DNA of 64,000 nucleotides from Flavobacteriales bacterium. Lineage in GTDB: Bacteria > Bacteroidota > Bacteroidia > Flavobacteriales_D > JAUILH01. The first letter of the stretch is position 1. Each line of letters begins with the position of its first letter. Location: positions 789,531 to 853,530 of the forward strand of contig CAXRGQ010000007.1 of assembly GCA_964230215.1 (NCBI GenBank). Direction: 5' to 3'. Shown here one piece after another: positions 7,699 through 30,700 of the stretch. Below the pieces are notes generated by a model. It had not been told where the DNA came from and searched no databases. It worked only from the letters and a program-made list of their open reading frames with translations. The position numbers were made by a program, and so were the translations under genes.

Positions 7699-7720
7699 GC
7701 ACTCAATATAACAAACAAAA

Positions 7721-7752: not shown

Positions 7753-7771
7753 GTAAATATCTCGTAAAAGA

Positions 7772-7963: not shown

Positions 7964-8220
7964 TATATATTGTATTAATTAAGTCGCGAAGGTAGACCTT
8001 TAAATCGTCCCGAACTATTTTTTTATTGATATTCAGCTATTTACATTAAGAGTGAAATCAAAGATACGAGTGATAACAGGGGATGCAGGGCATAAAATAG
8101 TTTAAAATAAATAGGCTTACCTTGGCTAATCGTGCTGTGATTTGATGAATTTCAGTTGTTTTTCCTACTTCATCGGCTTAAAATGAACGCGCAAGAGGAC
8201 AGCCATACCTCTAAGTTTCA

Positions 8221-8228
8221 TATCTTGC
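8221..8228 (+). promoter_or_regulatory. TATCTTGC box upstream of paralog 5
   Basis: Exact 8-mer, 21 nt before the ATG at 8250. Confidence 0.45.
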
Positions 8229-8249
8229 ACTAAACAAAAACTACTTATA

Positions 8250-8570
8250 ATGAAGAAACTACTATTATCACTTACACTTGGAGCTGGCTTAGTATTGGCT
8301 TCATGCGGTGGAGACACTGATGCAGCAGATATTAAAGCAGAAGACTTAGAAACAGCTTGTGACTGCGTAGACGCAATGAATACAATAGTAGATCGCATGA
8401 TTGAACTACTGGATGAGGATGAAAGCGAAGAAGTTGACGCTGAATATGAAAAGCTGGAGGAGAAAATGAATGAAGTTACTAAGCACTGCACTAAAGAATT
8501 TAAGAAAGAAGATGCCGAAGGATGTGATGGATATGACGATATTTCTGAGAAAATGAGACAAATAAGATAA
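8250..8570 (+). CDS. Small acidic CxC lipoprotein, paralog 5 (longer variant)
   Basis: 106 aa. Lipobox LASC, then ACDC, KHCTKE and EGCDGY. Confidence 0.75.
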   Translation: MKKLLLSLTLGAGLVLASCGGDTDAADIKAEDLETACDCVDAMNTIVDRMIELLDEDESEEVDAEYEKLEEKMNEVTKHCTKEFKKEDAEGCDGYDDISEKMRQIR

Positions 8571-8590
8571 TTCACTAATAGAAAGGATCT

Positions 8591-8630
8591 AGCCCAGCAA
8601 CCATAAATTTATTGGTGCTGGGCTTTTTTA
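8591..8630 (+). terminator. Rho-independent terminator after paralog 5
   Basis: agcccagca...tgctgggct hairpin followed by T6. Confidence 0.75.
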
Positions 8631-8657
8631 ATTCCAATTTTTAAGGAACTTTAGCAT

Positions 8658-8891
8658 ATGAAAAGACTAGTTTATGTATTTGTCATACTATTCACAACTT
8701 GCTTGATCGCATGCGAAGACGAGGATTCAGACAATAAAGAACCCAGCGTTTGTGAGTGTGTTGAAAATGCAAATGAGGACGAAAAGTTAGCCGAAGAATG
8801 CGAAAAAATGTATGAGAATGCGTCTAATGAGCGACAGGAGGAAATAAAAAAAGAAGCCGAAGAGTGCATAAAAGAAATGTCTATTGAATAA
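8658..8891 (+). CDS. Small acidic CxC lipoprotein, paralog 6
   Basis: 77 aa. Lipobox LIAC, then CEC, EECEKM and EECIKE. The stop overlaps the next ATG (TAATG). Confidence 0.75.
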   Translation: MKRLVYVFVILFTTCLIACEDEDSDNKEPSVCECVENANEDEKLAEECEKMYENASNERQEEIKKEAEECIKEMSIE

Positions 8892-9256
8892 TGCTTAATC
8901 AGATGAAAAGATGGATATGGGTGGTCATTGCTACCATCAGCTTGGCAAGTTGTGGGAATGATAACGAGTCAAACGCAAAAAGCTTAGCTGATTGTACATG
9001 CGAGTGTGTTCAGGATAACGGCCTTAAATCTCTAATGGGTAATTCTTCACCAATTTCAGGAGTTGGGGCCATTCAAGATTGTCTACAAAAAAGCGCAAAG
9101 GACGAACTGGAGTATTATTTGGGTCTTCAAGAAAGTGAAAAAAAGGAATTTATTAAGACCTTTCTAAAAGCATTGGTTGATTCACAATGTACAGATTTAG
9201 CACTCCTAATGTCTATGCCATATATCGATAAATTAGTAGGAGAGGCATCTGAATAA
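8891..9256 (+). CDS. CxC lipoprotein, paralog 7 (divergent, longer)
   Basis: 121 aa. Lipobox LASC, then CTCEC, QDCLQK and SQCTDL. An alternative ATG at 8903 gives MKRWIWVV.... Confidence 0.65.
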   Translation: MLNQMKRWIWVVIATISLASCGNDNESNAKSLADCTCECVQDNGLKSLMGNSSPISGVGAIQDCLQKSAKDELEYYLGLQESEKKEFIKTFLKALVDSQCTDLALLMSMPYIDKLVGEASE

Positions 9257-9298
9257 ACCAGAATGATTTCGTATGTTTAGTGTGAAAAACAAGAAATC

Positions 9299-9955
9299 AT
9301 GAAAAATGTATTATTGGGTATTTTGTGCCTTTCGTTTGCACTAACTTCTTCTGCTCAAGTTGGGGAAAAAGGAAAAATTTATGTCGATTTAAATGGCGGT
9401 CTCGGTATTTATAGAACGCTTGCCACCTCAACGATTACAAGTGGAGGCTCAAGTATTTCGTCTGAGGTAAAAGACACAGCTGCAGCGACCTATGTAGCCA
9501 TTGGAGCAGAATATGGCATTGTTGATTGGCTTAGTGCAGGTTTAAACCTAAGGTCAGGGAGCTATCTTTACGAGGACAATGATCAAAAACAATACAAAAG
9601 CAACAAGGTTAACACGCTTGAGGCTACTTCACACCTCTATTTTTTAAACCGAGATAAGTTCACGTTTTTCGGATCAATTGCGCTTGGATATACATTCTTC
9701 AAGAACAGCTATGACAATAACATTTATTCATCAGATGAAAAATATAATGGCTTGCATACCGGATTAGGACTAGGTTTTAAGTGGTTGTTTATTAAAGAAA
9801 GAGTTGGTTTGTTTTTTAACTATGAGTACAACACCTTCAACTTTGATTTAAAGGAGCGGATGATCAACGGAAATCAGCAGGATTTATCAAACCTAGAATA
9901 CAATTTAAATGTTCGTGGAAGTGAATTACGTTTGGGCCTCAGTGTTAAGATTTAG
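9299..9955 (+). CDS. Outer-membrane beta-barrel protein (OmpW/porin-like, function unknown)
   Basis: 218 aa. Signal peptide ending SSAQ. Alternating hydrophobic and Gly/Tyr/Asn-rich strands. Embedded in the lipoprotein array. Confidence 0.55.
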   Translation: MKNVLLGILCLSFALTSSAQVGEKGKIYVDLNGGLGIYRTLATSTITSGGSSISSEVKDTAAATYVAIGAEYGIVDWLSAGLNLRSGSYLYEDNDQKQYKSNKVNTLEATSHLYFLNRDKFTFFGSIALGYTFFKNSYDNNIYSSDEKYNGLHTGLGLGFKWLFIKERVGLFFNYEYNTFNFDLKERMINGNQQDLSNLEYNLNVRGSELRLGLSVKI

Positions 9956-11262: not shown

Positions 11263-11712
11263 TTACTGGACTATTCTCATGCCAACATGAGGTATACCGT
11301 CCTCTAGATATTCATCTGTATACTTTTCAAACCCAAACCCTTCGTAATAGTGCATTAAATGAGACTGTGCACTGATAGCAATTTTTAGCGGCTCATAATG
11401 TTTGTCTATGTGTGTCAGGGTGAACCGAATTAACCGTGATGCAAGTCCTTTAGATCTATAATTTACATCTGTCACCACGCGCCCAATTTTAATGATGTTA
11501 TCCTGAACATAAAGACGCAAATAACAACATGCCACCATTCCGTCCATGATAAAAATATGCTCAGCGCTTTTATCTATCTCGTCTACATCAGGATAAGGAC
11601 AGTCCTGCTCCACGACAAATACATCAACACGCAACTTGTAAATAGCGAATATTTCATCGTTACTTAAATCTTGGAATTTCTTTATATGGATGTTATCTAA
11701 AGGCAAAACCAA
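11263..11712 (-). CDS. GNAT family N-acetyltransferase (ElaA-like)
   Basis: 149 aa. VFVVEQDCPYPDVDEID and RSKGLASRL motifs as in ElaA-type GNATs. The start is a TTG and is uncertain. Confidence 0.7.
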   Translation of the reverse strand: MVLPLDNIHIKKFQDLSNDEIFAIYKLRVDVFVVEQDCPYPDVDEIDKSAEHIFIMDGMVACCYLRLYVQDNIIKIGRVVTDVNYRSKGLASRLIRFTLTHIDKHYEPLKIAISAQSHLMHYYEGFGFEKYTDEYLEDGIPHVGMRIVQ

Positions 11713-12988
11713 TGTTGAATAATAAGTTGTTATTTAGACTAAGCCCTTGGTAGTAACCTTTCGACTTATAACCTAGCCTGGCTTGTACAAATGCGTTTCG
11801 GCGTTTAAATAGTTTGTAGTTAGCAATTATATTTCCCATTCCGCCAAAACCTTCGAATTGCTCAAACACTTGATTTACCTTAAAGCTCATTTCGGGCTGA
11901 TTCCACAGGCCAATTAGCCCATCAAGGCTAAATCGTTTATCCTTTCCCAATAGTAAATTAAACATATTAATATCTATGCCCAAGGACTTAATTGCGCTTC
12001 CAGCCGTATGTCGAAAATCAAATTCGAGCATTGATTTTTCAAACTTAAAGTACTGCTTATAAAGCATTTCGATTCCATAAGGAGCGGTAAGGATATCAAA
12101 ACTTGGCAAATACTTAACTTTTTCTCCAAACTTAATCCACAGTAGTTTGGCTTCTTCCTCACCTTTGGCTATATACTTAAATAACCCAGCCGCAGACGCC
12201 AGATTTACTGGGTCGAGAATCATATCTGCTATGGATAAGATCTGAAGCTTATCTAAATCTACATGCCCTTGACCATAAGTGGCATTAAGCTCGTTGGCAT
12301 AACGCGTCAAACTCGAATCAACATACGATTTACCAGTGGCTATATGAAAGGCTAAATCATTATTAGAAAACAGATACAATAGGCCATCTTCAAATAACAT
12401 ATGATCGTTTAACAATGTGTTTTTGGCTGCCAGGTTTGATATCATCTGATTGGCTTCAAAGCCCCCTATGTAACTCAGCGCTCGCTCCTTTGGACTCAGA
12501 GAGTCTGAGAAAATTACTGACATTGTTGGCAAACCTTGGCCATACGGCTGTGGCACGCTTAGATTAGGAGCCGTGTAACTTGCTCCTAATTGTTCTGCCC
12601 TATACTGAGCACCAAATATTTGTCTCTGAGTAATAGCAGTAAGATAAGTTAGTGGATAATCCATCAACCCCGTTTTTACCACCCTGTACAAAATGTTTCC
12701 GGCTTTGGATAGTTTACTCTCTTTTTTGAAAATATCTGTAGGAATAAACTTATTCTCCAGTCGACTAACTAACTCATGATTTGCGAGCAACTGTTGAGCA
12801 CCAAAGTTGGCCGAGAGTTCGTTTTCGTATACAAGGCTGTATATTGAGTTTTTATCGTCCTTATCGGATTTTTTGTCCTTGTCTTTGTCTTTTTTGTCCT
12901 TATTGAAGAATTGTGCACTTGTATCACAAACACTTAGTGATGCAATAAGAAGGCAGATTAGTTTGAACTGAAAGAGTCTTTGCAACAT
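11693..12988 (-). CDS. Hypothetical secreted protein with K/D-rich low-complexity N-terminus
   Basis: 431 aa. Signal peptide, then KDKKDKDKDKKSDKDDK. No motif recognised. Confidence 0.4.
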   Translation of the reverse strand: MLQRLFQFKLICLLIASLSVCDTSAQFFNKDKKDKDKDKKSDKDDKNSIYSLVYENELSANFGAQQLLANHELVSRLENKFIPTDIFKKESKLSKAGNILYRVVKTGLMDYPLTYLTAITQRQIFGAQYRAEQLGASYTAPNLSVPQPYGQGLPTMSVIFSDSLSPKERALSYIGGFEANQMISNLAAKNTLLNDHMLFEDGLLYLFSNNDLAFHIATGKSYVDSSLTRYANELNATYGQGHVDLDKLQILSIADMILDPVNLASAAGLFKYIAKGEEEAKLLWIKFGEKVKYLPSFDILTAPYGIEMLYKQYFKFEKSMLEFDFRHTAGSAIKSLGIDINMFNLLLGKDKRFSLDGLIGLWNQPEMSFKVNQVFEQFEGFGGMGNIIANYKLFKRRNAFVQARLGYKSKGYYQGLSLNNNLLFNIGFAFR

Positions 12989-13156: not shown

Positions 13157-14782
13157 ATGAAAAAATTACTTGCTACACTCATACTATTGACTAGCATATC
13201 TTCAAGCTATGCTACACATATTGTGGGGGGTGATATTAGCTTACAATATGTATCTCCAAACACATATAATCTTACCGTAAGAGTGTATAAAGATTGTGGC
13301 TCATCAATAAACCCTAATCCAGCGGGTATGCCAACCTCAGTAACAGTTGGTTTATATGACCTATCAACAGATGCTCAGAATACCACTTGGGTTCTAAATA
13401 ATCAAAGTGCTGACACTTTAAGCTTAGGTGATGATTGTTATACACCGGATGATATTTGCGTAATGGAAGGAATATTTACAACACAAGTTACTATCCCAAA
13501 CAACCCAAATGGCTGGTATTTATCTACTCAATTATATGCTAGAAATGGTATTATAGACAATATCGTAGGTCCGGGGTCCACAGGAATGACATTCTACGCC
13601 GAGATTCCAGATCCTGCTATTGGTGTGAACTCTACACCGGATTTTGGTCCATATCCGACTGATGGATATTTGTGTATTAGTTATCGTAAGGAATTAGAGT
13701 TTAACGTATCTGATGCTGATGGCGATTCACTTGTATATTCTTTAGTGGACCCATTAGGATCTGTTGGAACAGCAAATGGTACTTTTGCTGGCCCATACAC
13801 AGGCGTGAATTGGCAAGCGCCTTTCAGTTTAGCCGATATTTGCGGAGGAACACCACCAATGGATATAGATCCAATTACCGGTATAGTGTCCGCGCAGCCG
13901 TCGGCTTTGGGTGTATATGTGTTCTCTGTTCGAGTAGAAGAATATAGAAATGGCGTAAAAATAGGGGAGACAAGAAGAGACATGCAGTATGCGGCACTGA
14001 ATTGTACGGTTGACAGCCCACCGAACTTTTTGGGATGGGATGACACCACTCAAACTGTGGAAGCATTGAGTGAATTATGCTTAGACTTTATTGTACAAGA
14101 TGTTGATGCAGATGACACAATTTATATGGATATAGATTCAGACATTTTGTCTATCCATGGAGGTTATACCACAACGGGGACATTGGTGGCTACATCACCA
14201 GATACACTCTATGAATATGAGTATACATCCGGCGGAAGCACTTTCACTGTGCAACAAGATCAGAACGGCATCTTTTTAATACCACCGAGTAATGTACTTT
14301 ATTTTAATGAAGGAACGGTAGCGCAGAGATTTTGCTGGACGCCTCAATGTGAGCACATAAGCACGCATCCTTACCCTGTAACGGTAGAATCTTACTCGCT
14401 GGGTTGTAGCGGTTCTGACACTACGCGCTTAAATGTTAACATTAACGTTGTTCCAATTCAGAATGGTTTCGAGAAAATTCCCAATGTGTTTACTCCTAAC
14501 GGAGATGGTGTGAATGATTATTTCATGATTGATGGAAGGTTTGACGTGTGCAACGATTTTATGAACGTAAAAATAATGAATAGATGGGGTCAATTGATTT
14601 TTGAATCGGATGATCCATTGTTCAAATGGGATGGCAAAACCGAATCAGGTAAAGAATGTCAGGCTGGTACTTATTATGTTTTAATTGAGGGACAATATGG
14701 AGGTGAGGTAATCACTAACGATGATGTGGGCAGCCAAGACAGCAGGAATATTAGCAAATACGCTGTCACCCTTTTTAGATAG
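13157..14782 (+). CDS. T9SS type-B cargo: gliding-motility-associated C-terminal domain protein
   Basis: 541 aa. Signal peptide. C-terminal FTPNGDGVNDYF...MNRWGQLIFES...WDGK...GTYYV signature. Confidence 0.75.
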   Translation: MKKLLATLILLTSISSSYATHIVGGDISLQYVSPNTYNLTVRVYKDCGSSINPNPAGMPTSVTVGLYDLSTDAQNTTWVLNNQSADTLSLGDDCYTPDDICVMEGIFTTQVTIPNNPNGWYLSTQLYARNGIIDNIVGPGSTGMTFYAEIPDPAIGVNSTPDFGPYPTDGYLCISYRKELEFNVSDADGDSLVYSLVDPLGSVGTANGTFAGPYTGVNWQAPFSLADICGGTPPMDIDPITGIVSAQPSALGVYVFSVRVEEYRNGVKIGETRRDMQYAALNCTVDSPPNFLGWDDTTQTVEALSELCLDFIVQDVDADDTIYMDIDSDILSIHGGYTTTGTLVATSPDTLYEYEYTSGGSTFTVQQDQNGIFLIPPSNVLYFNEGTVAQRFCWTPQCEHISTHPYPVTVESYSLGCSGSDTTRLNVNINVVPIQNGFEKIPNVFTPNGDGVNDYFMIDGRFDVCNDFMNVKIMNRWGQLIFESDDPLFKWDGKTESGKECQAGTYYVLIEGQYGGEVITNDDVGSQDSRNISKYAVTLFR

Positions 14783-15576: not shown

Positions 15577-18549
15577 ATGCGCTTATTCCTGAGTTTCATA
15601 TGTCTTTTATCAGCGACTTTCGGCTTTGCTCAAAAGAACCAGATAGAACTCAGCTTGCAAACCGGGCACACGGGTGATATTACAGAAGTTCGACTCAGTC
15701 ATGACAACCACCTAATTGCAAGTGCAGCTTCTGACCATAAAATAATAGTGTGGGACATCAAATCTGGTAAACAATTGGCTGCATTGTATGGCCATACAGA
15801 CGTGATTAATGATATCGACTTTTTTCCAGGTGATTCTACATTGATTAGCTGTAGTGATGATGGGAGCGTCAGAATATGGGATTTAAATCACAAGAAAGAG
15901 ATAAATAAATTACAAGACTTTAATGAAGCAGTGAAATGTGTAAGGGCAGGCAATGATGGTCTTACTTTCGCCACCGCCTCCAGCTTTATTAGAGTGTATA
16001 ATAGGACAAGTCTTAACTTTAAACGACTAGATCTAGTGGCAAAGGAGCGATTTGATTGCCTTTCCTATTCTTCAGATGGATCTAGAATACTATTTGGGGG
16101 AGAGGAGGAGAATTGGGTGTACGCATATAATTTACATACAAACGCTGTTGATGTTAAGTTCTTTTCGCAAGCAATAGACCTTGATTTTTCCCCTGATGGA
16201 GAGGAAATATACGTATGCACACCATATGGAAAGCTTTATGTATGGAATGATAGTACTCGATTAAAAAACGGAGTTGCCAGTAATAAAATACTCAACAAGT
16301 TTAATGCCGTGGCAGTTACTAATTCTGAGTTTTTCTTGGGAAATGAGGAGGGCAATATATATAGCTATAAACATTCTAATTTCAAGAAAAGAGGGGTTTA
16401 TCAAGCGCATTTAAGTTCAATTACTGCTCTGGATGTTAGTAATGATGACAGATTGCTTGTGTCCGCAGGAAGTGATCAGTTTATAGTTGTGTGGGATATT
16501 GCCACAGGTAGAATGCTTCAAACGCTAAGAGGGAGCGTTGACAAGTTGAATTGCGTGGGTTTTTCGACTGATGGTAAAGCGATGGCCTTGGGCTACAATA
16601 ATGGGATCATACGTCACTGGAATACTTTATCCAACAAAATTGTGACGACTGTATTTCAGCCTAATATAGTAGACGAGATCCTTGGCTGGGATTACACAAT
16701 AACGAATACAAACATTGACAATGATAGCATAGTAACAGTTCAGGCATACAAGCGCAAGAGGTCTTTCGAAAATAAAGATATCTATAGTGATATAATGCCC
16801 GTTCAGCTTACTTGGAATATAAATGAGAATCGATATGAAATATTACCTGGTTCAAAAAAACAAGAAACGCTTAAAAACCAGTATTTTAAAGACATAAGGA
16901 AAGGGCATGTACGAGATTTACAAGCTTATTTTTTAGATACAGCCAACTTTTACGATGAAAACGCATTGGTTAGTTGCAGAATACAATCAGATAGGTCCTT
17001 GATGATAAAATCGCTTGAAGATGGCACAGACAAGAAAATAATTACGGAGCACACGGATTTGATTTCTGCCGTTGCCATTAACCCAGTTTATTCTATGATT
17101 CTGACAACTAGCTGGGATGGGACTATGAGATATTGGGACATTGAAACAGGAGGGCTGATTGCTAAGATGGGATCTTTTGGGGTGGATGATTACATCTACA
17201 TAGATAAGGACAATTATTACTATTCGTCAAAGGGAGCGCTTAAAAATGTTGCCTTCAGAATGGGTAATAAAGCATTTGATTTTGATCAGTTCGACATCAT
17301 CTACAACCGACCAGATATAGTATTCTCACATTTCCCGTACTCTGAGCCTGAGCTCTTAGCCGACTATAAGCGCGCATATGAAAAACGTATGTCTAAGTTA
17401 GGGCTAACAACAGAAGATTTGAAAGTAAGCGAAGATGTCCCAACAATTAATGTTGAACTCCCTAGTGAGTTGTCAACTAGCGATGGCTTATTTACATTTC
17501 GAATATCTGCAGAAAGTAATCAGGAGAACCTTGAAAGATTATATGTGTACGTAAATGGTGTGCCAGAATTTGGAATAGGAGGTAAGCACATTGATGGTAA
17601 GAAGTATGAATCTGAAATCAAATTAGATTTGTGTTACGGGATTAATAAGGTTCAGGTTTTTGTTTCAAACGAGTCGGGACAAGCTTCTTACAAGGAATAT
17701 TTTGAATTAACCAACAAAGAAAAAAGAAGTAAGCCAGACGTCTATCTTGTCACATTAGGAGCTTCTAAATTTAAACAAGAAGATTTTAATTTGACATATG
17801 CCGCAAAGGATGCAGACGACATTCAATCACAATTTCAAAGGAGCAGACTATACAAGAATGTGCACAGTCTAAATATCAAAAATGACGGTATTGTCAAGTC
17901 GAAAATAGACACAATAAACACATTTTTAGCAGCTGCTAATCCTGATGATGTGGTAATTCTATTTGCGGCTGGGCATGGTGTTCTAGATGCTAATCTGGAT
18001 TACTATTATGCCTCCTACGATATGGATTTTGACTCACCCGAAGGCAAGGGTATTCCATATAGTTATTTTGAAGATGTCTTAGATAACACTAAAAGCAGAA
18101 ATAAGGTGATGTTTCTGGACGCCTGTCATTCTGGGGAAGTTGACAAAGAAGAGGTAATCAAAACGGATGCAGCTGACACAGAAATTGAGGGCATCACATT
18201 TAGACATGTGGGCGTTGATATCTCGAATAAAAATATGGACAACATAAACAGCTTTGAATTATCCAAGAGGCTTTTTGCGGATACGAGAGCCAGTAATGGT
18301 AGTACCGTTATGAGTAGCGCTGGGGCGGGTGAGTATGCTATAGAAGGAGATCAGTGGAGCAACGGTGTTTTCACGTATTGTTTACTTGATGGTTTAAACT
18401 CAAAGGAAGCTGATTTAAACCATGATAAAAGAATTATGCTTAGTGAACTGCAGCGTTATCTAAAGACAAAAGTGAGCCGAATGACAGCTGGTCAACAGCA
18501 ACCTAATGAGCGCTCAGAAAACCTACAAAACGATTTCCGTATATGGTAA
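15577..18549 (+). CDS. Secreted WD40-repeat / caspase-like (peptidase C14) multidomain protein
   Basis: ATG at 15577 gives the signal peptide MRLFLSFICLLSATFGFAQ. Multiple WD40 units follow (e.g. GHTGDITEV...IIVWD, GHTDVIND...VRIWD, AHLSSITAL...IVVWD, EHTDLISAV...MRYWD). The C-terminal caspase fold carries a His-Cys dyad in the contexts AAGHGV and LDACHSGE. Confidence 0.8.
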   Translation: MRLFLSFICLLSATFGFAQKNQIELSLQTGHTGDITEVRLSHDNHLIASAASDHKIIVWDIKSGKQLAALYGHTDVINDIDFFPGDSTLISCSDDGSVRIWDLNHKKEINKLQDFNEAVKCVRAGNDGLTFATASSFIRVYNRTSLNFKRLDLVAKERFDCLSYSSDGSRILFGGEEENWVYAYNLHTNAVDVKFFSQAIDLDFSPDGEEIYVCTPYGKLYVWNDSTRLKNGVASNKILNKFNAVAVTNSEFFLGNEEGNIYSYKHSNFKKRGVYQAHLSSITALDVSNDDRLLVSAGSDQFIVVWDIATGRMLQTLRGSVDKLNCVGFSTDGKAMALGYNNGIIRHWNTLSNKIVTTVFQPNIVDEILGWDYTITNTNIDNDSIVTVQAYKRKRSFENKDIYSDIMPVQLTWNINENRYEILPGSKKQETLKNQYFKDIRKGHVRDLQAYFLDTANFYDENALVSCRIQSDRSLMIKSLEDGTDKKIITEHTDLISAVAINPVYSMILTTSWDGTMRYWDIETGGLIAKMGSFGVDDYIYIDKDNYYYSSKGALKNVAFRMGNKAFDFDQFDIIYNRPDIVFSHFPYSEPELLADYKRAYEKRMSKLGLTTEDLKVSEDVPTINVELPSELSTSDGLFTFRISAESNQENLERLYVYVNGVPEFGIGGKHIDGKKYESEIKLDLCYGINKVQVFVSNESGQASYKEYFELTNKEKRSKPDVYLVTLGASKFKQEDFNLTYAAKDADDIQSQFQRSRLYKNVHSLNIKNDGIVKSKIDTINTFLAAANPDDVVILFAAGHGVLDANLDYYYASYDMDFDSPEGKGIPYSYFEDVLDNTKSRNKVMFLDACHSGEVDKEEVIKTDAADTEIEGITFRHVGVDISNKNMDNINSFELSKRLFADTRASNGSTVMSSAGAGEYAIEGDQWSNGVFTYCLLDGLNSKEADLNHDKRIMLSELQRYLKTKVSRMTAGQQQPNERSENLQNDFRIW

Positions 18550-20291
18550 GAATACTAATGATAGTAATCTGTTTTGCTGCACTTGATGTGCTTGGACAAA
18601 GTGTAGATTTAACAATTGGAGCAAGACATAATTTTAACCTAATTAACGGTAATTCTGATTATCAAATAGCTATTCCTGATCAGGATCAATGGCCTCTATT
18701 ATCATCGTTTGATGATTACCAAATGGAAAGAAATACGGAACTGGAATTTGGCTTAAGGTTTAACATGAAAAACAATTGGTTTTTTGAGACTGGCTATAGC
18801 AATAGTAGACTGGTAATTAATTTATCGGGCACGAGTAATTATTCTGATTCCATATTAACGGATTTGGCGGACAATTCATTTAATGATCTTTATGCAAACA
18901 TGGGAGGATCATATACGTATCAAGAGTTCTATGATTTATACTACCAGCGTGTTTATAACCAAACAAGGGCCGAGTGGGAGACTGATTTGGCATATACAGA
19001 AGAGTTAAAAACGCACAATATTTACTTTGGAGCGGGATATAGATTTTTTCAAAATAAACCAATCAGACCATATGTTAAAGGAGGGATAACTATAAAAAAG
19101 AAGTACGATAAATTTAGCTATCAATATCTTGAGCAGAATAACGCATTGGTGACTAACAAGATCGTTTTCTACAATAACATTCCGAGTATTTGGGATTTTA
19201 TCACTTTTGGGAATATTGGTTTTGGTGTTGATATGTATCGATTACAAGCTGGTGTTAACTTAGAATTTAACATTGGTTCCATTGAAAGAGCTATACCCGT
19301 TGAGGAATTAGATACCACTGGAAACGTAGTAACCTATTATGATTTTAGCAAGCGTCTCTACAATAACTGGGTGCGCGTTGGCTTTCAGGTTACTTATGAC
19401 TTAGTGTCGGCTGATGTGACTTCTAGAGTTAACAGGAAAGCGCTTGAGAATCTAGATCATATTACAACTGGTCGATACGAACGAAAAGAAAGAAAATTTG
19501 TCCTAGGCGCGAAACTTGCCCAGCCAATGATTAACAGTATGTCACGCACATTCGACTCGGTGTTAGTTTACCAAGACTATGTATATGATGTAGTTGAGTC
19601 TGACACAATATATCAAAGAGGGGCGTATCAGGATTTACTTTTTAATAGAGTAAAGAGAGTAGAGTTATCGCCTGAAGTGGCGGGATTTGCTCAGTTTAAG
19701 ATTTTAGACTGGTTTTTCCTAGAAACAGACTTGGCCTATCAATTTGGGAAAGTTGATATAGGAACTGAAGAATGGAATGTTCCAGAATATGACCTTGATA
19801 ATCCAGGGTCCGCATTTGATAATGTAATCCAAGATCTTGGGGCATTCCGATTTTCATATGACGCTGTTAAACTTAAACAACTATTCAAGTTTAGGGTACT
19901 TAATCATGATTTAGTGCGCATTTTACCATTCATTGGTGCTGGCGTGGAGACATGGACACCACGGGAATTTGATAACTCTACGCCTGGAGTAAACAGCTTA
20001 GAGATTCATAAGGATTTCTACAATCATTATTTTCTCGGAGAGCCAAATGAAACTTTACAAGCAGGATATCTTGATCTGTACTCAAATCATGAAGACCCGA
20101 ACATAGACTTAACTAAAACGGCATGGGGCGGAACTAAGGTAATTGGCACCATTATTTTAGGAACAGAACTTGAGTTGGACAGAATTAAATTTGGAGTGAA
20201 TTATGAATTCACTCCTGGATTTATTGATGAGTTAATGCTTTCCCATTACCAGTCATTGACGCTCTCCATGGCATATAACTTTATGCGTTAG
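18543..20291 (+). CDS. Hypothetical secreted protein (possible outer-membrane beta-barrel), coupled to the WD40-caspase gene
   Basis: 582 aa. Signal peptide ...LDVLGQS. The ATG overlaps the upstream stop by 7 nt. Tyr/Gly/Asn-rich alternating segments. Confidence 0.45.
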   Translation: MVRILMIVICFAALDVLGQSVDLTIGARHNFNLINGNSDYQIAIPDQDQWPLLSSFDDYQMERNTELEFGLRFNMKNNWFFETGYSNSRLVINLSGTSNYSDSILTDLADNSFNDLYANMGGSYTYQEFYDLYYQRVYNQTRAEWETDLAYTEELKTHNIYFGAGYRFFQNKPIRPYVKGGITIKKKYDKFSYQYLEQNNALVTNKIVFYNNIPSIWDFITFGNIGFGVDMYRLQAGVNLEFNIGSIERAIPVEELDTTGNVVTYYDFSKRLYNNWVRVGFQVTYDLVSADVTSRVNRKALENLDHITTGRYERKERKFVLGAKLAQPMINSMSRTFDSVLVYQDYVYDVVESDTIYQRGAYQDLLFNRVKRVELSPEVAGFAQFKILDWFFLETDLAYQFGKVDIGTEEWNVPEYDLDNPGSAFDNVIQDLGAFRFSYDAVKLKQLFKFRVLNHDLVRILPFIGAGVETWTPREFDNSTPGVNSLEIHKDFYNHYFLGEPNETLQAGYLDLYSNHEDPNIDLTKTAWGGTKVIGTIILGTELELDRIKFGVNYEFTPGFIDELMLSHYQSLTLSMAYNFMR

Positions 20292-20301
20292 ACGAACAGT
20301 T

Positions 20302-21933
20302 TTAAAATGAGGGAGCTGATATAGTGCGATAGCGTGTCTTTGTAACCACTTGTTTTGCCTTAGGATATTTTATGGTATAACCTAGCTCGTAATTCTGAAC
20401 TTTACTAGGTGCTAACTTAAGCCTCCATGATAGAATTCCGGTCTCTTCATTTTTATCCGCATCTGATATCTCATCTACATTCACATTAATCTCACTATTT
20501 TTAGAAATAGGGTATTGATCCTGAATTTCAATGTCAATTTCCTTCGAGTGCATGTTCTTAATCTTGATCTCGTAGGTATATGATTCCTTTCTGCTTCCGC
20601 CTAAAATTGACTTAGAAGAGTATTCCATCTTTTCAATTCGCTCAATAAGTACTTTATCATCACGCCCCAGAGAGATGCTCATAGTATCGGCAAATTCAAC
20701 AGGATTAATCTTAGATTTTCCAACATATTTATTTCCAAAGTAGATATTGGATGGACCTTCTATCAAGTTGAGGTTTTCCCATCCAGTAATGTCAGCCATT
20801 AAGAATGCCTTTTTCTCTAATTTAGGTACTGTAAAATGAGAATAACTTGCTGGCAGTTTGTTTTCAGATATCCCTATTATATAAGGCTTAGCGTCTGCTG
20901 GGATAGTATATTTTTCTTCAATGTCAAATTGAACACTTACTTCAGAAACAAGAACTTCTTTGTACTTGACTTTTTGCATTTGATTATTATCCCATGTATC
21001 AGCACTTCTATTAGATACGCTAGAATTGTAGTTACTCACTTTTTCGGCTGACTGACGATATGTAGAGTGTGTTGTATAGTTCAAATACCAAGGTTTTAGT
21101 TCTGGTCTTGAAGCGCTTAAGTAAGGATCTGCACTAGATAAGTGCATAGTTACGTCATCCCAAGATATGGAGGTATTATTGAACACCTTGCCTTTATAAA
21201 CGATAGTGATATCGCTATTAATGTCTTGCGCTTTTATATCATAAACAGGTTCCCAACCAGCCTGACTAGTAAGGTATCTAATGCCAACTTTTGCTGATGT
21301 CGTCGTTTTAGACTCAACTAAAACATGAATGTCATAACGTTTGGGATTGTTTTCATAGTTAAGGGTGTTTAGTTGTCGCTGTAGCTTGTTTTTCAAGTCA
21401 GATTCTAACTTTCTTTTGCGCGAAAGTGTATTGATCGCTTTGCCTATTTCCAGCACCCGTGTTCTAAAGAATTCAGTTGCCTTTTTGAGTTCATCTACAG
21501 ATAAACCACTGGCCTCTCCACTTACTTTCTTGTTAGTCATCATCACATCTTTTTCAATTGAATACGCATCAATCTCATTATTTAATGATTCGATAGACAG
21601 TTCAAGAAATTCAATACTGTCTTTCAAGGTTTTTATGCGTGGCTCCAGTGTTTCAGGCACTAAATGATTAAGTTCTGAGCTAACACTAAGTATTTTCACG
21701 TCCTTATCCAATCCAATTTGCACAGATGAAGGATCCATAAAAGGAGATTGATTCTTAAATACTAGCTTGTTCTTGCCTGCAGTAAGATTGACATTAGCTT
21801 CTCTTTTAAGCTCTGCTCCAACTAAAAATATGGTAACATCTTTTATCTGAGCTTCAGAAACCTTAGGCGTCTGAGAAAATAGAAGCTTGCTAAGTAGCAA
21901 AGAGGTAATAACTAATGTGAAGGCCTTTATCAT
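20302..21933 (-). CDS. DUF4139-like (MuiA-type) secreted protein
   Basis: 543 aa. Signal peptide and a central coiled-coil-like segment. The overall pattern recalls DUF4140/DUF4139 proteins. Recognised from memory only. Confidence 0.4.
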   Translation of the reverse strand: MIKAFTLVITSLLLSKLLFSQTPKVSEAQIKDVTIFLVGAELKREANVNLTAGKNKLVFKNQSPFMDPSSVQIGLDKDVKILSVSSELNHLVPETLEPRIKTLKDSIEFLELSIESLNNEIDAYSIEKDVMMTNKKVSGEASGLSVDELKKATEFFRTRVLEIGKAINTLSRKRKLESDLKNKLQRQLNTLNYENNPKRYDIHVLVESKTTTSAKVGIRYLTSQAGWEPVYDIKAQDINSDITIVYKGKVFNNTSISWDDVTMHLSSADPYLSASRPELKPWYLNYTTHSTYRQSAEKVSNYNSSVSNRSADTWDNNQMQKVKYKEVLVSEVSVQFDIEEKYTIPADAKPYIIGISENKLPASYSHFTVPKLEKKAFLMADITGWENLNLIEGPSNIYFGNKYVGKSKINPVEFADTMSISLGRDDKVLIERIEKMEYSSKSILGGSRKESYTYEIKIKNMHSKEIDIEIQDQYPISKNSEINVNVDEISDADKNEETGILSWRLKLAPSKVQNYELGYTIKYPKAKQVVTKTRYRTISAPSF

Positions 21934-22712: not shown

Positions 22713-24074
22713 ATGAAGAAAATTTTACTTACTTCAATGTGTGCTGTTGCCTTATTTTCAAACGCTCAATTAGGCGTAGTTTATAACGGCGACCTTGAAA
22801 CGTGGACAAGCTCTACAATATTTGAATCCCTTGATAATTGGAACACGTCTAATCAAGAGTGGCCAGGTGCCGGGACATGTATAAAAAGTACGGATGCACA
22901 GGATGGCTCATTTTCTCTAGAACTTAATACTGTGCTTGTAGATACAGACACAGCTTTTGGTTATGCTGCTTGGGGTGAAGTGGGGAACGACCTGGTTGGG
23001 AATCCATATAGCACAAGCGTAGATTCATTAGTGGCTTATTTTAAATACGATTTCACGAATAACGATTCAGCAACAGTACTTGCTGTTCAATTCACAGCCG
23101 CTGGACCTGTATTAAACATGTGGAAATTTGCCGGTTCTAACACTAGTACTTGGGAAAGAAAAGCTTTCAAACTATTATCGCCTGTACAGGATTCACTGCT
23201 TGTAGCATTTGCATCTGGAAATGCATTTGAAGAGTATTCAAATCCTGGCTCTATGCTGATGGTTGACAATGTGATGCTGACAACTGGTGCAGGAACTGGT
23301 CCAAATATCGGAAACCATTCTTTTGAGAACTGGACCCCAGTGACTATTGAAGATCCTAATGATTGGGAAACGACTAATAGATTTACTGAAATTGGTGGAT
23401 TAGGAAGTAATGTAATTAAATCAACAGATGCACACTCAGGTTCATACGCTGCAGAGCTAACTACTGTGGGTGACTCTCAAGATTACATTCCTGGAATTAT
23501 GACAAATGGGTTTATCTTTTTCGGTGGTGTTGATGGAGGTGTTGCGTATGAGGCCCAACCAACTGCATTGGAGTGTTATTATAAATATGCACCTGATGCA
23601 TCAGATCAAGCCTTTATATCAGTGACGTTTTGGGGTTCTGGCGGAACGGTAATAGAACAGCAAGGAGGTACATTTACAGCAAATGGCAGCTATACACTTA
23701 TGAGCGTTCCTCTTACCGTACCATCTATACCTGACTCCATGAACATTACTATTTATTCTGGAGACAGTGTTGGGTCTGTACTGCACATAGATGATATCGT
23801 GTTCACCGGCGGTAACGTAGGAATTGATGATCAAGATCTATTCATTCAGTTCGAAATGTACCCTAATCCAACTAATGACGGATTTTGGATGAACTCTGAC
23901 TTAAAAGGAAAAGCGCAATACACCATTGTTGCAGTAGACGGAAAGACAGTAGCGAGTGGCTTGGTTAATTCAAACAAAACTTACATTAACACATCTAATT
24001 TAACTCCAGGAGTATACAATGTTATAATGACAAGTAAATACGCACGAGCTACTAAGAAACTTGTAGTTGAGTAA
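22713..24074 (+). CDS. T9SS type-A cargo (Por_Secre_tail C-terminal sorting domain), function unknown
   Basis: 453 aa. Signal peptide. C-terminal MYPNPTNDGFWMNS...GVYNVIMTS...KKLVVE. Confidence 0.7.
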   Translation: MKKILLTSMCAVALFSNAQLGVVYNGDLETWTSSTIFESLDNWNTSNQEWPGAGTCIKSTDAQDGSFSLELNTVLVDTDTAFGYAAWGEVGNDLVGNPYSTSVDSLVAYFKYDFTNNDSATVLAVQFTAAGPVLNMWKFAGSNTSTWERKAFKLLSPVQDSLLVAFASGNAFEEYSNPGSMLMVDNVMLTTGAGTGPNIGNHSFENWTPVTIEDPNDWETTNRFTEIGGLGSNVIKSTDAHSGSYAAELTTVGDSQDYIPGIMTNGFIFFGGVDGGVAYEAQPTALECYYKYAPDASDQAFISVTFWGSGGTVIEQQGGTFTANGSYTLMSVPLTVPSIPDSMNITIYSGDSVGSVLHIDDIVFTGGNVGIDDQDLFIQFEMYPNPTNDGFWMNSDLKGKAQYTIVAVDGKTVASGLVNSNKTYINTSNLTPGVYNVIMTSKYARATKKLVVE

Positions 24075-24773: not shown

Positions 24774-27700
24774 TTATCTCACTACAGTTACATGACCAAT
24801 GTACTCATGTGGTATGTTTTTATGGTCAACCGTTTTAATTAACCAAACATATACATCTAACTTAACTGTTCTTCCACTGCGTGTATCCGTTCCATCCCAT
24901 CCATAATCTGGACTGTGAGATTCGAATACAATTTGTCCCCATCTATCAAAGATGTACATTTCAAACTGATTATCAGTAAGACCGACACCAACAGGGTAGA
25001 ACACATCATTCATACCATCACCATTAGGTGTAAATGCGCTTGGTGCGAATAGAATGTAATCTCCTTCAACATACACTTCATATGAGATTTGATCTGTACA
25101 ACCAAACTCATTTTCAACCGTAAGCGTTACATCAAAGTATCCAGTGTCAGTATACGTATGAATAGGGTTTTGATACGTTCCAATCGTGTGTCCATCATTT
25201 GTTCCTACTGGCACTGCTCCTGGAGTTCCGCTAAGCGTATATCCATCACCAAAGTCCCAGTTGTACACAGTAGCACCCGAGCTTGAATCCGAGAATGTAA
25301 TTGTTGGATTCAACATAGTGGTAATCGCCGGATCCATTCCAAAATTAGCTATTGGAAGTGGATGAGATGTTACTATCTGACTTGCTGTCATAGAAGCAGT
25401 ACATCCATCTGCAGACTCCACTGTCATACAAACATCATATGTTCCAGGTGTGCCGTACGTATAAGTTGGATTTGAATTAGGTCCAACATAATCAACGGTT
25501 CCATCACATTCAAAGTCGAATGAGTAGTTAACACCGATATCCGAGTTAGCAATGAACTGAGCTGTGAATGGTGAACATCCAGACGAATCAACTACATTCA
25601 AGAATGCAGATGGATTAGGATTCACAATTACTTCAACTGAGTCTAACACATCTAAGCTACAACCATCTCCCGTGGTTACATAGTACCATCCAGAAGCTAG
25701 TGGGTTAAGTGTTATAGTAGATGAGTTGCCATTCTGTGTACCTGCAATTGGATTACCTTGATCGTCTACCCAATCAAATGTGTAAGGTCCACCATTACCA
25801 TCTGAAGCCGTAACCGTTAAATCAATCTGATCTCCGTCACAAATAGATGTATCTGGTGTTATAACAGTTGCAATTGGAGGTAGAACTGTGATATCGATAC
25901 AACCTAAGCCAGTACTTGGACAACCATTTGCATCTGTAATATCAAAGCAATATTGAGTACTTGTTAATGGATTAACCGTAATTGGTCCCTGACCATTCAA
26001 GCCTGGTGTTTGCCAGATGATGTTGTAAGGAGGTGTACCACCTTGTCCGCTTGCCCATAACTGAGACGAATCACCATAACAAATGGTCGCGTCTAAATCT
26101 GGAACAGGACTTAGTGGCTGTGGCTCAATAAGAGTTGCACAATTTGTAGCCTGACACCCGTTTGCATCTTGAATAGTAACACAATATGTGCCATCTCCAA
26201 GCGCCACTGCTGGGTTCGAATTTTGGTTAAACGCTGCTGCATCCCACTGATAGGTAATTGTACCAGTACCACCACTGTGAAGTACTTCAAGTGATCCGTT
26301 TGATAAACCATTACATGTTGGAGGTGTTAAGTTAAATCCATCAATAGTAGGAGCAGGCTCATCGGTTACAGTAATTGTAATCGTTTCTGTACATCCTTGC
26401 GCATCTGTCACTTCAACAGTGTGTAAACCTGCAAGTAGTCCAGTGTTAGTTTGTGAAGTCAAGTTACTTCCTCCAGATAGCCACTGGTACGTATACGGTG
26501 CTGTACCACCAGTTGGGTTCACCGTTGCGGTTCCATTAGCCTGAGAACATGTCGAGTTAGTAGAGCTTCCAGTTAGTGTTAATAGAGGTGGCTCTGTAAT
26601 CGTCACACTAATGTTTGCTGGACATCCGTTTCCATCTGTTACGTCTAAATCATACGTTCCTGCACACAATGCACTTGCCGTTGGGCCGTTAGACACAACA
26701 GGAGTCCATGCATAAGTATAAGGAGGTGTAGCACCACTTGCCGTAATCGTTACTGTACCATCGCATGCACCGTTACAACTAACATCTACCTGGTTAGTAT
26801 TTGCTAATAATAGTTGCGTTGGTTCAGTGATCGTTACAGTACTTGAAGTACTACAATTGTTCGAGTCAGACACTATTACGTTATAAGTACCCGCACATAG
26901 CCCTGTATTGGTTGCTGCTGTAGTGTTTGCACCGGCATTCCAGTTGTATGTATAACCTGTCAATACAGATGGCAGTCCACCACTCACAGATACAGTTGCT
27001 TGGCCATCGCATCCCAAATAACAACTAACATTTGTTTGTGATGTAATTGCACTGTTTATCTGATTTGGTTCTGTAATACAAATGGTGCTAAAGTCAATAC
27101 ATCCCGCAGCATCTGTAGCCATAAGAGTATAGCATCCACCATCAAGACTAGTAGTTAGGGTTTGCCCTGTGTTAACAGAGTTGTTGTTCGCATCAAGGAG
27201 CTCTAATGTTGATGTACCAGTTCCCCCTGTAACAGAGAATTCAACCATACCATCCATGTCACCAAAACATGTCACATTCATTGAGTCAACATTATCTACC
27301 GTTGGACCAACAATATCGCTAATACATAGTAAGCTATCTTTAATACATCCGTTTGCATCTACAATTGTTATCGTATAACATCCTGCAGGAATGTTTGGTA
27401 ATGTCGCAGATGTTGTTCCGTTAGGATCACTCCATTGATATGTAAATGGTGCCACACCACCTATAACATTGACGCTCATAGATCCATTCGATTGACCGCA
27501 GTTAGAATTAGTAAGCGTAGCTGCAAAGTCAAGTTCGTTTGGTTGTGTTATAATTACGGTCTCAGTAATAATACATCCATTAGCATCTGTAATTGTACAT
27601 GTATATGTTCCTGCACATAAGTTGATTGCACTTGCCCCAGTTTGGAATGCAGGGTCGTCCCATTGATAATTAAATGGAGGCGTACCACCTTGTAACAACA

Positions 27701-30700
27701 CATTAGCTGATCCATCGCAGGCATTGAAACAAGACACATTAACACTTGTTGATGAAATGGTTAACGGGTTAGGCTCGATGATAGTCACCTGAGCAGTTGC
27801 CGTACATCCGTTAGCATCTGTAACCGTTGCCACGTATGTGTTAGGACAAAGATTAGTCGCTAATTGATTAATTCCCGCGTTATTACTCCATTGATATGTA
27901 TATCCAGGAGTACCGCCTGCTTGATCAACTTGTGCGAATCCATCACATGCACCACTACATGTTACATCTCCTTGCTGGGAAATGTTTGCCGTTAATAGTG
28001 GCGGTTCTGTAATGGTAACTGATACTGTTGTGAAACAGCCATCCGCATCTGTTACTATACAAGTATAAGTTCCGGGGCACAAATTAGTTGCTGTGGCAGT
28101 CGTTTGTGCCATCGGATCATCCCATAGATATGAGAACGCACCCACACCGATTATACCAGTTGCCGTTGCCGTTCCATCACATACTCCATTACAAGTAACA
28201 TTAGATGAAGTAGCGTTGGCTGTAACTTGTGCTGGATCAACCAATGTTACGTTATCTGTAGCGATACATCCATTAGCATCCGTAATATTGACAACATAAT
28301 TACCAGAGCATAAATTTGGAATACTATCATTGGTGCCAATTACAGCTCCTGCTCCGTTAACCCAAGAATAAGTGTAACCTGGAGTTCCGCCTGTAACATT
28401 AACCCAAGTACTTCCATCACAGTATCCGAAACATACAGGATCGGCACCATTCGTAATATATGATAGATCTGTTGGTTGATTTATAGTAACATTTGTACTT
28501 GCCGAGCATCCAAGATCGTCGGTAATGGTAACAGAGTAGAATCCAGCACTTAAGTTGGATGCTGTTGGTGTAGTCTGGTTACCAGCGTTAGCATCCCATT
28601 GCACTGTGAATGTAACACCTGCTCCACCCACCATGTCTACAGTGGCTGTTCCGTTGTTGCCTCCAAAACAAGAAACATCTGCTGAAGCAATAATTGCTGC
28701 TGTTGGACCACTTAAGTCACTAATTTCAACTGCTATCTGTTCAACGCACCCGTGATCATCAGTAACATCAACAATGTATGTGTTTGCTGCTAAACCAACC
28801 GCACATGAGTTTGTTGAGTTATTTGGCCATAAATATGTATAAGGAGCAGTTCCTCCAGAAGCAATTACGCAACCTTGACCATCCGCCTGATTACAGTTTG
28901 CATTAACTACGGTTGAGTCAAGTAGAATTGGGCTCGGAGTAGCAACCTGAATAGAATCAATAATAGAGCACCCATTGTCATCAGTTACTGTCACTGCGTA
29001 CATTTGTGAACAAAGTCCAATTGCCGTTTGCGTAATTTGATTTAGCGGATCATTCCACTGATAGTCATATCCTGCAATTGCCGTTCCGCCGGCAGGAGTT
29101 GCTATTATAGAACCATTGCAGTCACCATGACAGTGAACAGGATTCTGATTAAGTGTTAGCGATAATGCGGTAGGCTCACCTACTGTAACATTTCCAGATG
29201 TTGACAAACACGTATTTGCATCCGTTACTTCAACGTAGTAATCACCAGCACATAATCCAGTTGCGTTCTGAGTAGTTTGCCCGATTGCTATACCCGTGTT
29301 TGCGTCAAACCACTCATAGGTAAATGGTGCAGTTCCGCCTGCCATTGATACACTTACTTCTCCATCGCAGGCGCCATTACATAGGGCATCTGATACATGC
29401 ACAGACGTAGCGATTCCTGGAGGAATGTTTCCAACTGTGGCTGTGGCTTGTGCCGAACATCCATCTGCATCCGTAACAGTCACGGTATATGTGTTTGGTG
29501 CTAAGTTAATTGCTGTTTGAGTAGATTGACCAGTCGGGTTCCATGCATACGTTAGCTGGCCTACACCACCTTGCACAATGTTTACTGTTGCAGATCCTGT
29601 AAGCGTATTACAGAATGCATCAACATCAGATGTTGTAAGTATTATTTCGAGTGGTTCTCCGACTGTTCCGGTAACAACAAATGTACATCCGTTTGCATCA
29701 GTAACAATACAGTCATATGTTCCTGGGCAGAGTCCAGTAGCAGTATTTGTAGTCTGAGCGCCTGGATCATTCCAAAGGTAAGTGTAAGGTCCAGTTGCAC
29801 CTGAAGCTAACACCGTTAATGAACCATCACAATCTCCATAACAAGTTACATCAACTGTTGTTTGAATTACCGCGTTTAATGCTGTTGGTTCTGTAATTGT
29901 AAGACTTGTAGATGCGATACATCCATTTGCGTCTGTCATTTCTGCAGTATAAGATCCTGCACATAGGTTATTAATGGATGGCGTTGTTGAGATTCCGCTT
30001 ATCGGATTATTCGCTGCATCAAACCATTGATAGTTTACTGGAGGAGCCCCACCAGTAACTTGTACCTGAGCAAATCCATCACAAGCACCATTACACGTTA
30101 CGTTGGTAACTGTTAAAGGAGTAATAGTTGGAGATCCAAGGTTTTGCACACAAACATTCTCAGTTGCTGTACAACCGTTGCCGTCAGTTACTGTTACATC
30201 ATAACATCCGGCCGCTAAGTTTGTAGCTGTTGCTGTTGTTTGATTTCCGGCAGCTGCATCCCATTGGTACGTGTATGCAGGGTCTCCTTGAGTAACGGTA
30301 ACTGTTGCATCCCCATCCGTTTGCCCACAGTTTGCACCATTAGAAGCGCTCGTTAAGATTAGTTCTGTTGGCTCAGTTATAATAACTTGATCGTTAAAGG
30401 TACACCCATTTGCATCCGTAATAACTAAGTTATAAGTGCCTGCGCATAGGTTTGTGATCCCAGCTGTTGTACTAAGCGCAGGGTCATCCCATTGATAGGT
30501 ATATGCACTTACTCCACCAGATACATTTGCTGTAGCATCACCATCACAAGCTGCAAAACAAGAGTTATTGTTAGATGCTATGGTGTTAGCTAATGCCGCT
30601 GGTTCGGTCAATGTTATCGGTACAATTACTTGACAGTTGTTAAAGTCTGTTATTGTCACATTATAAGTTCCAGCACACAAATTGTTCACTGCTGCAGACG

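Follow-up and report, generated by a model that had tools for sequence, protein, structure and literature searches.

Bacterial caspase homologues have nearly always been treated as cytoplasmic proteases of cell death or defence, and the locus described here raises the question of what such a protease does when it carries an export signal and is encoded together with an outer membrane protein. The locus lies in a 64,000-nucleotide (nt) stretch (the window; positions 789,531 to 853,530 of contig CAXRGQ010000007.1, assembly GCA_964230215.1) from a Flavobacteriales bacterium. It consists of gene A (15577-18549, + strand), an exported WD40-caspase of 990 amino acids (aa) from its ATG, and gene B (18543-20291, + strand), a 582-aa predicted double beta-barrel outer membrane protein; these assignments are based on the list of open reading frames (ORFs) together with the Pfam WD40 and Peptidase_C14 matches for A and with AlphaFold2 and Foldseek for B. 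An alternative start of gene A, an upstream TTG at 15553, would give a protein of 998 aa, and the NCBI assembly GCA_041260045.1 encodes proteins identical to A (990 aa) and B (582 aa). Our analyses point to the conserved A-B pair being a cell envelope protease complex, so far uncharacterised, and we assign a probability of roughly 45% to a one-to-one complex in which B keeps A in place at the inner face of the outer membrane.

The C-terminal part of A does belong to peptidase family C14, as an earlier note on this DNA had claimed. PF00656 (Peptidase_C14) matched residues 727-987 (E = 2.3e-15; 57.4 bits compared to a cut-off of 21.4) and, when the C-terminal 446 residues were scanned alone, gave E = 4.5e-16 (59.7 bits); this match, the fold search and an alignment of homologues place the domain at residues ~722-990 (17740-18546, + strand). 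Residues 545-990 were modelled with AlphaFold2 from an alignment of 18 sequences (predicted local distance difference test (pLDDT), 79.9; predicted template modelling score (pTM), 0.81), and the model shows three parts, i.e., a short helical segment, a beta-sandwich and an alpha/beta domain. When this model was compared to the PDB with Foldseek, the paracaspase MALT1 was the best match (E = 5.8e-9; target-normalised template modelling score (TM), 0.69), with caspase-9 and fungal, trypanosome and plant metacaspases among the other matches; the top 43 were all MALT1, caspases or metacaspases. These matches confirm the C14 fold of A. A low-confidence insert in the model (residues ~854-914) falls at the site of the p20-p10 linker of caspases. 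Among PDB sequences, phmmer found no match for the caspase region of A, and a profile of 87 sequences found only GSU0716 and AtMC4, both weakly. NCBIfam model NF047832 (EACC1-associated caspase) reached 74.5 bits compared to a cut-off of 140 and covered the p20 part only, and PADLOC gave a weak "caspase" match (E = 1e-6) plus a repeat match.

Residue conservation was assessed in 87 homologues, aligned over the C-terminal 446 residues. The catalytic His800 (17974-17976), in the AAGHGV motif (17965-17982), and the catalytic Cys850 (18124-18126), in the DACHSGE motif (18118-18138; all + strand), were both present in 87/87 homologues, and the dyad previously described as intact is therefore invariant across the family. 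Asp745 and Asp848 were likewise present in 87/87. In metacaspases and MALT1, the two corresponding aspartates line the S1 pocket that accepts a basic P1 residue (Arg or Lys). In the profile alignment to Arabidopsis metacaspase-4, Asp745 falls on the Asp of "ND" and Asp848 on the Asp of "DSCHSG"; as both residues are invariant and aligned to the metacaspase pocket, the protease of A is predicted to be specific for Arg or Lys at P1. The p10-like part of the domain also contains an EF-hand-like loop (DLNHDKRIMLSE, residues 946-957; 18412-18447, + strand), which fits the EF-hand pattern and whose positions 1, 3, 5, 8 and 12 are kept in 85-86 of the 87 homologues. This conservation suggests that the loop represents a family-wide Ca2+ site, unlike the known Ca2+ site of metacaspases, and that the protease probably binds Ca2+ through it; as the Pfam EF-hand_1 model matched with an E-value of only 0.0094, we infer Ca2+ binding rather than assign it.

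The WD40 (beta-propeller) region is located N-terminal to the protease, as had been reported, and covers residues ~22-530 (15640-17166, + strand; PF00400 and propeller families). In the Pfam scan, PF00400 (WD40) matched four stretches with 132.6 bits (cut-off 27), and more than 40 further beta-propeller families matched residues ~20-360 and ~448-524. The earlier estimate that WD40 repeats fill ~560 residues holds only approximately; about nine WD40-like units are visible by eye, only four of them exceed the Pfam per-repeat threshold, and the stretches at residues ~110-290 and ~366-490 are degenerate. Between propeller and protease, the AlphaFold2 model places helices (residues ~569-615) followed by a beta-sandwich (residues ~623-713; middle region, 17254-17721, + strand). 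A Big_7 match in this region was weak (E = 0.067), and its YNRPD motif is conserved across the 87 homologues.

Signal peptides were called by inspection and with a hydropathy script, and both A and B carry one, in agreement with the earlier note. The predicted type-I signal peptide of A (15577-15630, + strand) reads MRLFLSFICLLSATFGFA and is followed by QKNQ, i.e., a hydrophobic segment ends in Ala before Gln; a type-I signal peptide followed by Gln is the usual arrangement in Bacteroidota. A hydrophobic N-terminus was found in 74 of 76 full-length A homologues and an [AGS]Q motif in 67 of 76, with the conserved QTGH of the first WD40 unit directly after it. The description of A as secreted, on the other hand, was not supported beyond the signal peptide itself. 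No C-terminal domain of the type IX secretion system (T9SS; CHU_C or Por_Secre_tail) was detected at E ≤ 1 in the last 446 residues of A, and T9SS C-terminal domains were detected in four other proteins of the window, which served as positive controls. Lipoprotein anchoring was rejected, as A has no lipobox; Cys9 lies within the hydrophobic core of the signal peptide and its position is not conserved. With neither a T9SS C-terminal domain nor a lipobox, A is periplasmic by default, and it most likely stays in the periplasm.

Gene B begins with a predicted signal peptide (18543-18596, + strand), MVRILMIVICFAALDVLG, in which a hydrophobic segment ends in Gly before Gln; this Gln19 is invariant in 28 family members. 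No match to B was found in Pfam, NCBIfam or PADLOC, including matches to POTRA or to T9SS sorting domains in the Pfam scan. When 1.84 billion cluster representatives were searched exhaustively with HMMER, only 26 relatives of B emerged (570-663 aa), and word-indexed searches (with the single sequence or with a 9-sequence profile) found only two proteins. The AlphaFold2 model of B, built from 28 sequences (pLDDT 84, pTM 0.73), consists of nearly nothing but long beta-strands, and all 50 listed Foldseek matches were outer membrane barrels, which bears out the earlier classification of B as a beta-barrel protein. TodX/FadL were the top whole-chain matches by E-value (2e-7) with a TM of only 0.15-0.2, OmpA and OmpW matched one half of B with a TM of ~0.5, and the autotransporter barrels of EspP, NalP, EstA and AaaA were also among the matches.

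The single large barrel suggested previously is, however, better seen as two. The two halves of B (residues 18-292 compared to 315-582) aligned to each other with hhalign (96.3%; E = 1.9e-9; 186 columns) and are thus homologous, which makes B a tandem duplication of a barrel unit with about ten strands in each copy. In the model, unit 1 (residues 19-292; 18597-19418) includes a helical hairpin (residues ~102-145) and is joined to unit 2 (residues 319-582; 19497-20288) by a linker (residues ~293-318; 19419-19496; all + strand) that is made up of a helix (residues 293-304) and a low-confidence Lys/Arg-rich segment. The linker, ADVTSRVNRKALENLDHITTGRYERKERKF, has 8 Lys/Arg in 30 residues, and pLDDT is below 50 at residues 294-313. 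Overall, the model supports two tandem homologous beta-barrels in the outer membrane, with barrel closure read from the secondary structure. Conserved residues across the B family are only Gln19, several Gly, Asn32/Asn484 and Arg72, and with this conservation limited to Gly, Asn, Arg and Gln nothing in B appears enzyme-like. The C-terminus of B reads ...LSMAYNFMR and those of homologues ...FYLRK or ...LFLN; the aromatic residue is located 2-4 positions before the end and is not terminal.

Multi-barrel outer membrane proteins have been predicted before (Solan et al. 2021, PNAS, PMC8346858), among them a superfamily from Bacteroidetes whose members combine two or three barrels with an alpha-helical linker; that study mentions no caspase. 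B shares with this superfamily the homologous barrels in one chain and the helical linker, a likeness of architecture alone, and differs in that its units look closer to ten strands than to eight. From its model, B would belong to the general class of multi-barrel outer membrane proteins, and to no named family.

The two genes overlap by 7 nt, as had been read before; the shared ATGGTAA (18543-18549, + strand) places the start of B inside the last codon and stop of A, and the junction reads cgtATATGGTAAgaa, with the ATG of B within ...TGGTAA. The claim that A and B co-occur elsewhere was borne out as well. Four homologue look-ups led to Crocinitomicaceae-type loci with an A of 977-990 aa, the 7-nt overlap and a 601-652-aa protein without Pfam domains. 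Further loci (designated by L numbers) were fetched, and the ORFs called in them were searched with hidden Markov models built for A and for B. In the window as well as in 18 of these other loci, each full-length B was located directly downstream of an A, with the second tandem B copy in L004 as the only exception to this adjacency, and a full-length B away from an A was never found. A-B pairs occurred in L001-L004, L007-L013, L015, L016, L022, L028, L033 and L036; as L007 is the genome of the window itself and L011 repeats L001, these represent 17 independent A-B pairs in 16 distinct loci. Thus the C14 fold, the conserved dyad and the recurring pair, on which the earlier note had let its reading depend, were all found. 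The hosts are all Crocinitomicaceae and other Flavobacteriales, and include the cultured Crocinitomix catalasitica ATCC 23190 (L033). The -7 junction (ATGGTAA) was also found in L001 (twice), L002, L003, L004, L028 and L033; other junctions were -20, -4 (ATGA), +1, +2 and, in one case, +146.

In a neighbour-joining tree of A C-termini, the 17 B-partnered A proteins fell within one clade of 19; of the other two members, the one in L019 is paired with a divergent B-like protein (E = 1.9e-13, filters off). Across 15 A-B pairs, conservation of A exceeded that of B in every case (mean identity 36.6% compared to 23.7%), and the distances of A and B co-varied (r = 0.94). Adjacency, usually with a stop/start overlap, was kept even where B had diverged to 15-23% identity. 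L001 carries two A-B pairs in tandem, whose copies differ by 58% for A and 36% for B; the pair was therefore duplicated as a unit. No third gene conserved around the A-B pairs was found; the upstream neighbours of A vary by lineage, with a pseudouridine synthase in the window and a HemL-like protein, a methyltransferase or an alpha-2-macroglobulin elsewhere. The alpha-2-macroglobulin genes (~2100 aa; L001, 1-811, and L002, 1-5937) immediately precede the A-B pair(s), in the same orientation, in two Crocinitomicaceae metagenome-assembled genomes (MAGs), and are of the bacterial type, a broad protease inhibitor. Scans of the window for sigma-70-type promoters, intrinsic terminators and the Bacteroidetes -7 motif (TAnnTTTG) gave results at or below chance and did not define the transcription unit.

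The architecture of A had been presented as a rarity, which it is not. A survey seeded from A, using the pattern D[AT]C[HF]SG[ES][VI]D and one genome per GTDB species, found at least 596 stretches, of which 593 were confirmed; almost all were from Bacteroidota, and the others were labelled Ignavibacteriae or Chlorobiota, apart from one MAG of the Proteobacteria. Databases already label such proteins "caspase family protein". WD40 is the commonest partner domain of prokaryotic caspase homologues (10.9%), and this, exported homologues, and N-terminal helices that are possibly signal peptides were all noted in 2012 (PMC3501461). The exported branch is thus large, spanning hundreds of Bacteroidota species and often several copies per genome. 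Head-to-tail arrays of two to four WD40-caspase paralogues were also found (L039, 2828-15355; L031; L073); they recall Haliscomenobacter hydrossis, for which 28 copies have been reported (PMC3501461).

More distant WD40-caspases (1030-1400 aa) have no B downstream, and a different operon is found around a number of them. At no fewer than 11 loci (L005, L023, L025, L031, L042, L043, which has two copies, L044, L069, L075, L079 and L086), a ~245-300-aa exported protein (not detected above threshold in L023) is followed by a ~325-360-aa lipoprotein and then by the WD40-caspase that ends the operon, and several of these operons begin with a ~200-215-aa exported protein. In L005 (operon at 3677-9718), an OmpA-like 199-aa barrel follows the WD40-caspase. 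Five further loci (L034, L040, L046, L052 and L062) show a variant order of a 263-288-aa protein, a 576-744-aa lipoprotein and the WD40-caspase; two ORFs of 681 and 698 aa take the place of the lipoprotein in L062, and a retropepsin-like 178-aa protein is located upstream in L034 (operon at 748-7922). The ~250-290-aa operon proteins have a single barrel and are homologous to each half of B (hhalign, 98.0% and E = 2e-13 for the N-terminal half; 93.9% and E = 1.5e-7 for the C-terminal half), and one of them gave a weak OMP_b-brl_2 match. Among the ~330-aa lipoproteins, 5 of 12 matched Pfam VWA or VWA_3 (best E = 9e-7), and their profile matched the integrin alpha-M I-domain (E = 1e-6); PepSY_like repeats were found in both longer lipoproteins scanned (L034 and L040). 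The exported branch is thus genetically tied to outer membrane barrels and envelope lipoproteins. As the operons of distant WD40-caspases also hold barrels, the link between barrel and protease is old and recurrent, and the window represents a lineage-specific version of it in which the barrel was duplicated, fused and moved downstream.

We hypothesized that A and B form a one-to-one complex in the cell envelope. In such a complex, A would be exported by the Sec pathway and remain in the periplasm, where its WD40 propeller(s) would serve as a platform that binds a protein substrate or ligand, with the helical and immunoglobulin (Ig)-like spacer separating this platform from the C-terminal clan-CD (C14) cysteine protease. 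The caspase domain, stabilised by Ca2+, would cut after Arg or Lys. B would reside in the outer membrane with its inter-barrel linker presumably in the periplasm, and A may be tethered through the helical hairpin and linker of B, both of which would be periplasmic if the usual barrel topology applies; the tethered protease would then perform regulated cleavage of envelope proteins. As the genes are translationally coupled, A and B would be made in about equal amounts. The recurrent partners are small barrels, and we therefore favour a scaffold or anchor role for B over a protein-conducting channel.

Several observations weigh against this proposal. No detectable barrel partner was found in more than half of the loci of distant WD40-caspases (56 of 87), and a WD40-caspase therefore does not always need one; no A-B fusion proteins were found; the A-B pairs are too few for co-evolution analysis; the location of A is deduced from missing known sorting signals and not from a positive test; and the strand count of B, the separate closure of its barrels and the sidedness of its linker are read from secondary structure. 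The remaining one concerns a proteobacterial MAG (UBA981; L084, 50-5358), in which the gene downstream of a 1194-aa WD40-caspase, overlapping it by 1 nt, encodes a 574-aa protein with a ShlB-type POTRA (POTRA_2) domain, which hints at two-partner-like secretion in that lineage.

This last arrangement is part of the case for B being a dedicated translocator that exports A to the surface or the medium, where A would work as a protease on or outside the cell, e.g., in feeding or in attacking other cells. The gene order and translational coupling of A and B resemble those of cargo-transporter pairs, autotransporter barrels are among the structural matches of B, and the evolution of B is faster than that of A, a pattern common among surface-exposed proteins. 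We nevertheless consider export of A through B unlikely. B lacks POTRA and any other domain for recognition in the periplasm, its best partial matches (OmpA and OmpW) and the weak OMP_b-brl_2 match of the single-barrel homologue mark its units as small barrels, and the single small or OmpA-like barrels of related operons cannot pass a 100-kDa propeller protein. In addition, the genome marks its surface proteins with T9SS signals, and A has none.

Compared to two-partner secretion (TpsA/TpsB) and autotransporters, the A-B pair shares the adjoining genes for an exported protein and an outer membrane barrel. It differs in that B has neither POTRA nor the 16-strand Omp85 barrel and A has no two-partner secretion (TPS) domain, and the likeness extends to a POTRA neighbour in one distant proteobacterial relative only.

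The tethered complex could also be extended to the lipoproteins of the sister operons. Together with the barrel and the VWA or PepSY lipoproteins, A might form an envelope-resident sensing and proteolysis machine free of any nucleoside triphosphatase (NTPase), in which the propellers detect a ligand (a phage or predator component, damaged envelope or a surface cue) and the Ca2+-dependent caspase cuts envelope targets, remodelling or permeabilising the outer membrane. If true, this machine would be the periplasmic counterpart of cytoplasmic sensor-caspase systems; we regard it as speculative and rather improbable.

A related possibility is that B is the substrate or effector of A, i.e., that ligand-activated A cuts the Lys/Arg-rich linker and thereby alters outer membrane permeability, as a switch for cell death or defence at the envelope that parallels caspase-gasdermin systems. 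The richness of the linker in basic residues and its low model confidence fit the predicted specificity of A, tandem arrays of WD40-caspase paralogues are the kind often seen in sensor families, and the PADLOC match of A, weak as it is, points in the same direction. Conversely, the homologous partners in related operons are single barrels without a linker, and linker cleavage thus cannot be the ancestral logic of the system. B matches nothing in PADLOC and shows no similarity to gasdermin, the neighbours of the pair are a pseudouridine synthase and a DUF4139/MuiA-family gene with no defence genes nearby, and one-to-one translational coupling would be unusual for an enzyme and its substrate; taken together, these data make a cleaved B very unlikely.

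We likewise see only a slim chance that the pair is a nutrient module, with B as an uptake channel for peptides or solutes and A degrading polypeptides behind a propeller that limits access, as in prolyl-oligopeptidase-type enzymes. The FadL/TodX substrate channels lead the whole-chain matches of B, and a metagenomic survey speculated on a polymer degradation role for Bacteroidetes metacaspases (PMC4933709). The TM of the FadL/TodX matches is only 0.15-0.2, however, and B is composed of two small barrels and not of one 14-stranded channel. The conserved pair also shows no link to SusC/D or TonB-type uptake genes, and caspase-family enzymes are typically limited, site-specific proteases.

That A and B are merely co-transcribed envelope proteins without functional interaction would fit the many distant WD40-caspases without a barrel neighbour and the fact that no direct sign of interaction was obtained, but is improbable given the adjacency kept through the divergence of B, the duplication of the pair as a unit, the confinement of full-length B to sites beside an A, and the recurrence of the barrel-protease link in a different gene order in distant operons.

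The proposed A-B complex can also be compared to known systems. NlpI-Prc, TolB-Pal and BamB-BamA represent outer membrane-tethered periplasmic protease or scaffold complexes. In these, and in PorE, a membrane partner keeps a periplasmic propeller or adaptor at the outer membrane, as proposed for A and B; this is a functional analogy only, as there is no sequence relationship to A-B, and lipoproteins or OmpA-like domains serve as the tether in place of a double barrel. PorE is a periplasmic WD40 protein of the T9SS, and periplasmic WD40 domains thus exist in Bacteroidota (PMC12773672).

Orthocaspases, or bacterial metacaspase-like proteins (MEROPS C14, PF00656), including cyanobacterial and STAND-type caspase-NTPase-WD40 proteins, share with A the caspase fold, the His-Cys dyad, the DxCHSG motif, the acidic pocket residues that predict Arg/Lys cleavage, and WD40 as a partner domain. 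Unlike these, A has its WD40 region N-terminal and not C-terminal to the protease (residues ~22-530 and ~722-990), has no NTPase, carries a signal peptide, a helical and Ig-like spacer and an EF-hand-like loop in the p10-like part, and is coupled to a gene for an outer membrane barrel; A is therefore not a canonical orthocaspase in architecture or location. MALT1, the best structural match, resembles A in that an Ig-like domain adjoins the protease and in that both are clan-CD enzymes directed to Arg (as predicted for A). In MALT1, however, Ig3 follows the protease, whereas the beta-sandwich of A precedes it; MALT1 is also eukaryotic and cytosolic, and its sequence identity to A is only 12-15%. 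Overall, A is not an EACC1-type caspase, T9SS cargo, part of a two-partner secretion pair or part of a known defence system.

The components of the locus are recognisable; their combination, location and conserved coupling are undescribed in the literature found, and no published functional study of an exported WD40-caspase coupled to an outer membrane barrel was found in a literature coverage that was incomplete. If the complex is real, caspase-family proteases would gain a role in envelope biology, one predicted multi-barrel outer membrane protein would gain a functional partner, and C. catalasitica ATCC 23190 would be a cultured organism in which to study the pair.

The surroundings of the A-B pair in the window include a convergent gene (20302-21933, - strand) with DUF4140 and DUF4139 (TIGR02231, "mucoidy inhibitor MuiA family"), which ends 10 nt from the stop of B and is not conserved beside A-B pairs in other genomes. 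A 431-aa exported ORF (11693-12988, - strand) has a KDKDKDKK low-complexity stretch after its signal peptide and no Pfam or NCBIfam match. The genome uses the T9SS, as shown by an SprB-repeat CHU_C adhesin, a second CHU_C protein and two Por_Secre_tail proteins; the last three are encoded at 13157-14782, 22713-24074 and 38820-40421. The adhesin, of the gliding type, is a 3625-aa ORF (24774-35651, - strand) with 17 SprB repeats, PKD domains and a CHU_C T9SS signal, and its GC content is 0.43-0.46 as compared to ~0.37 in its flanks.

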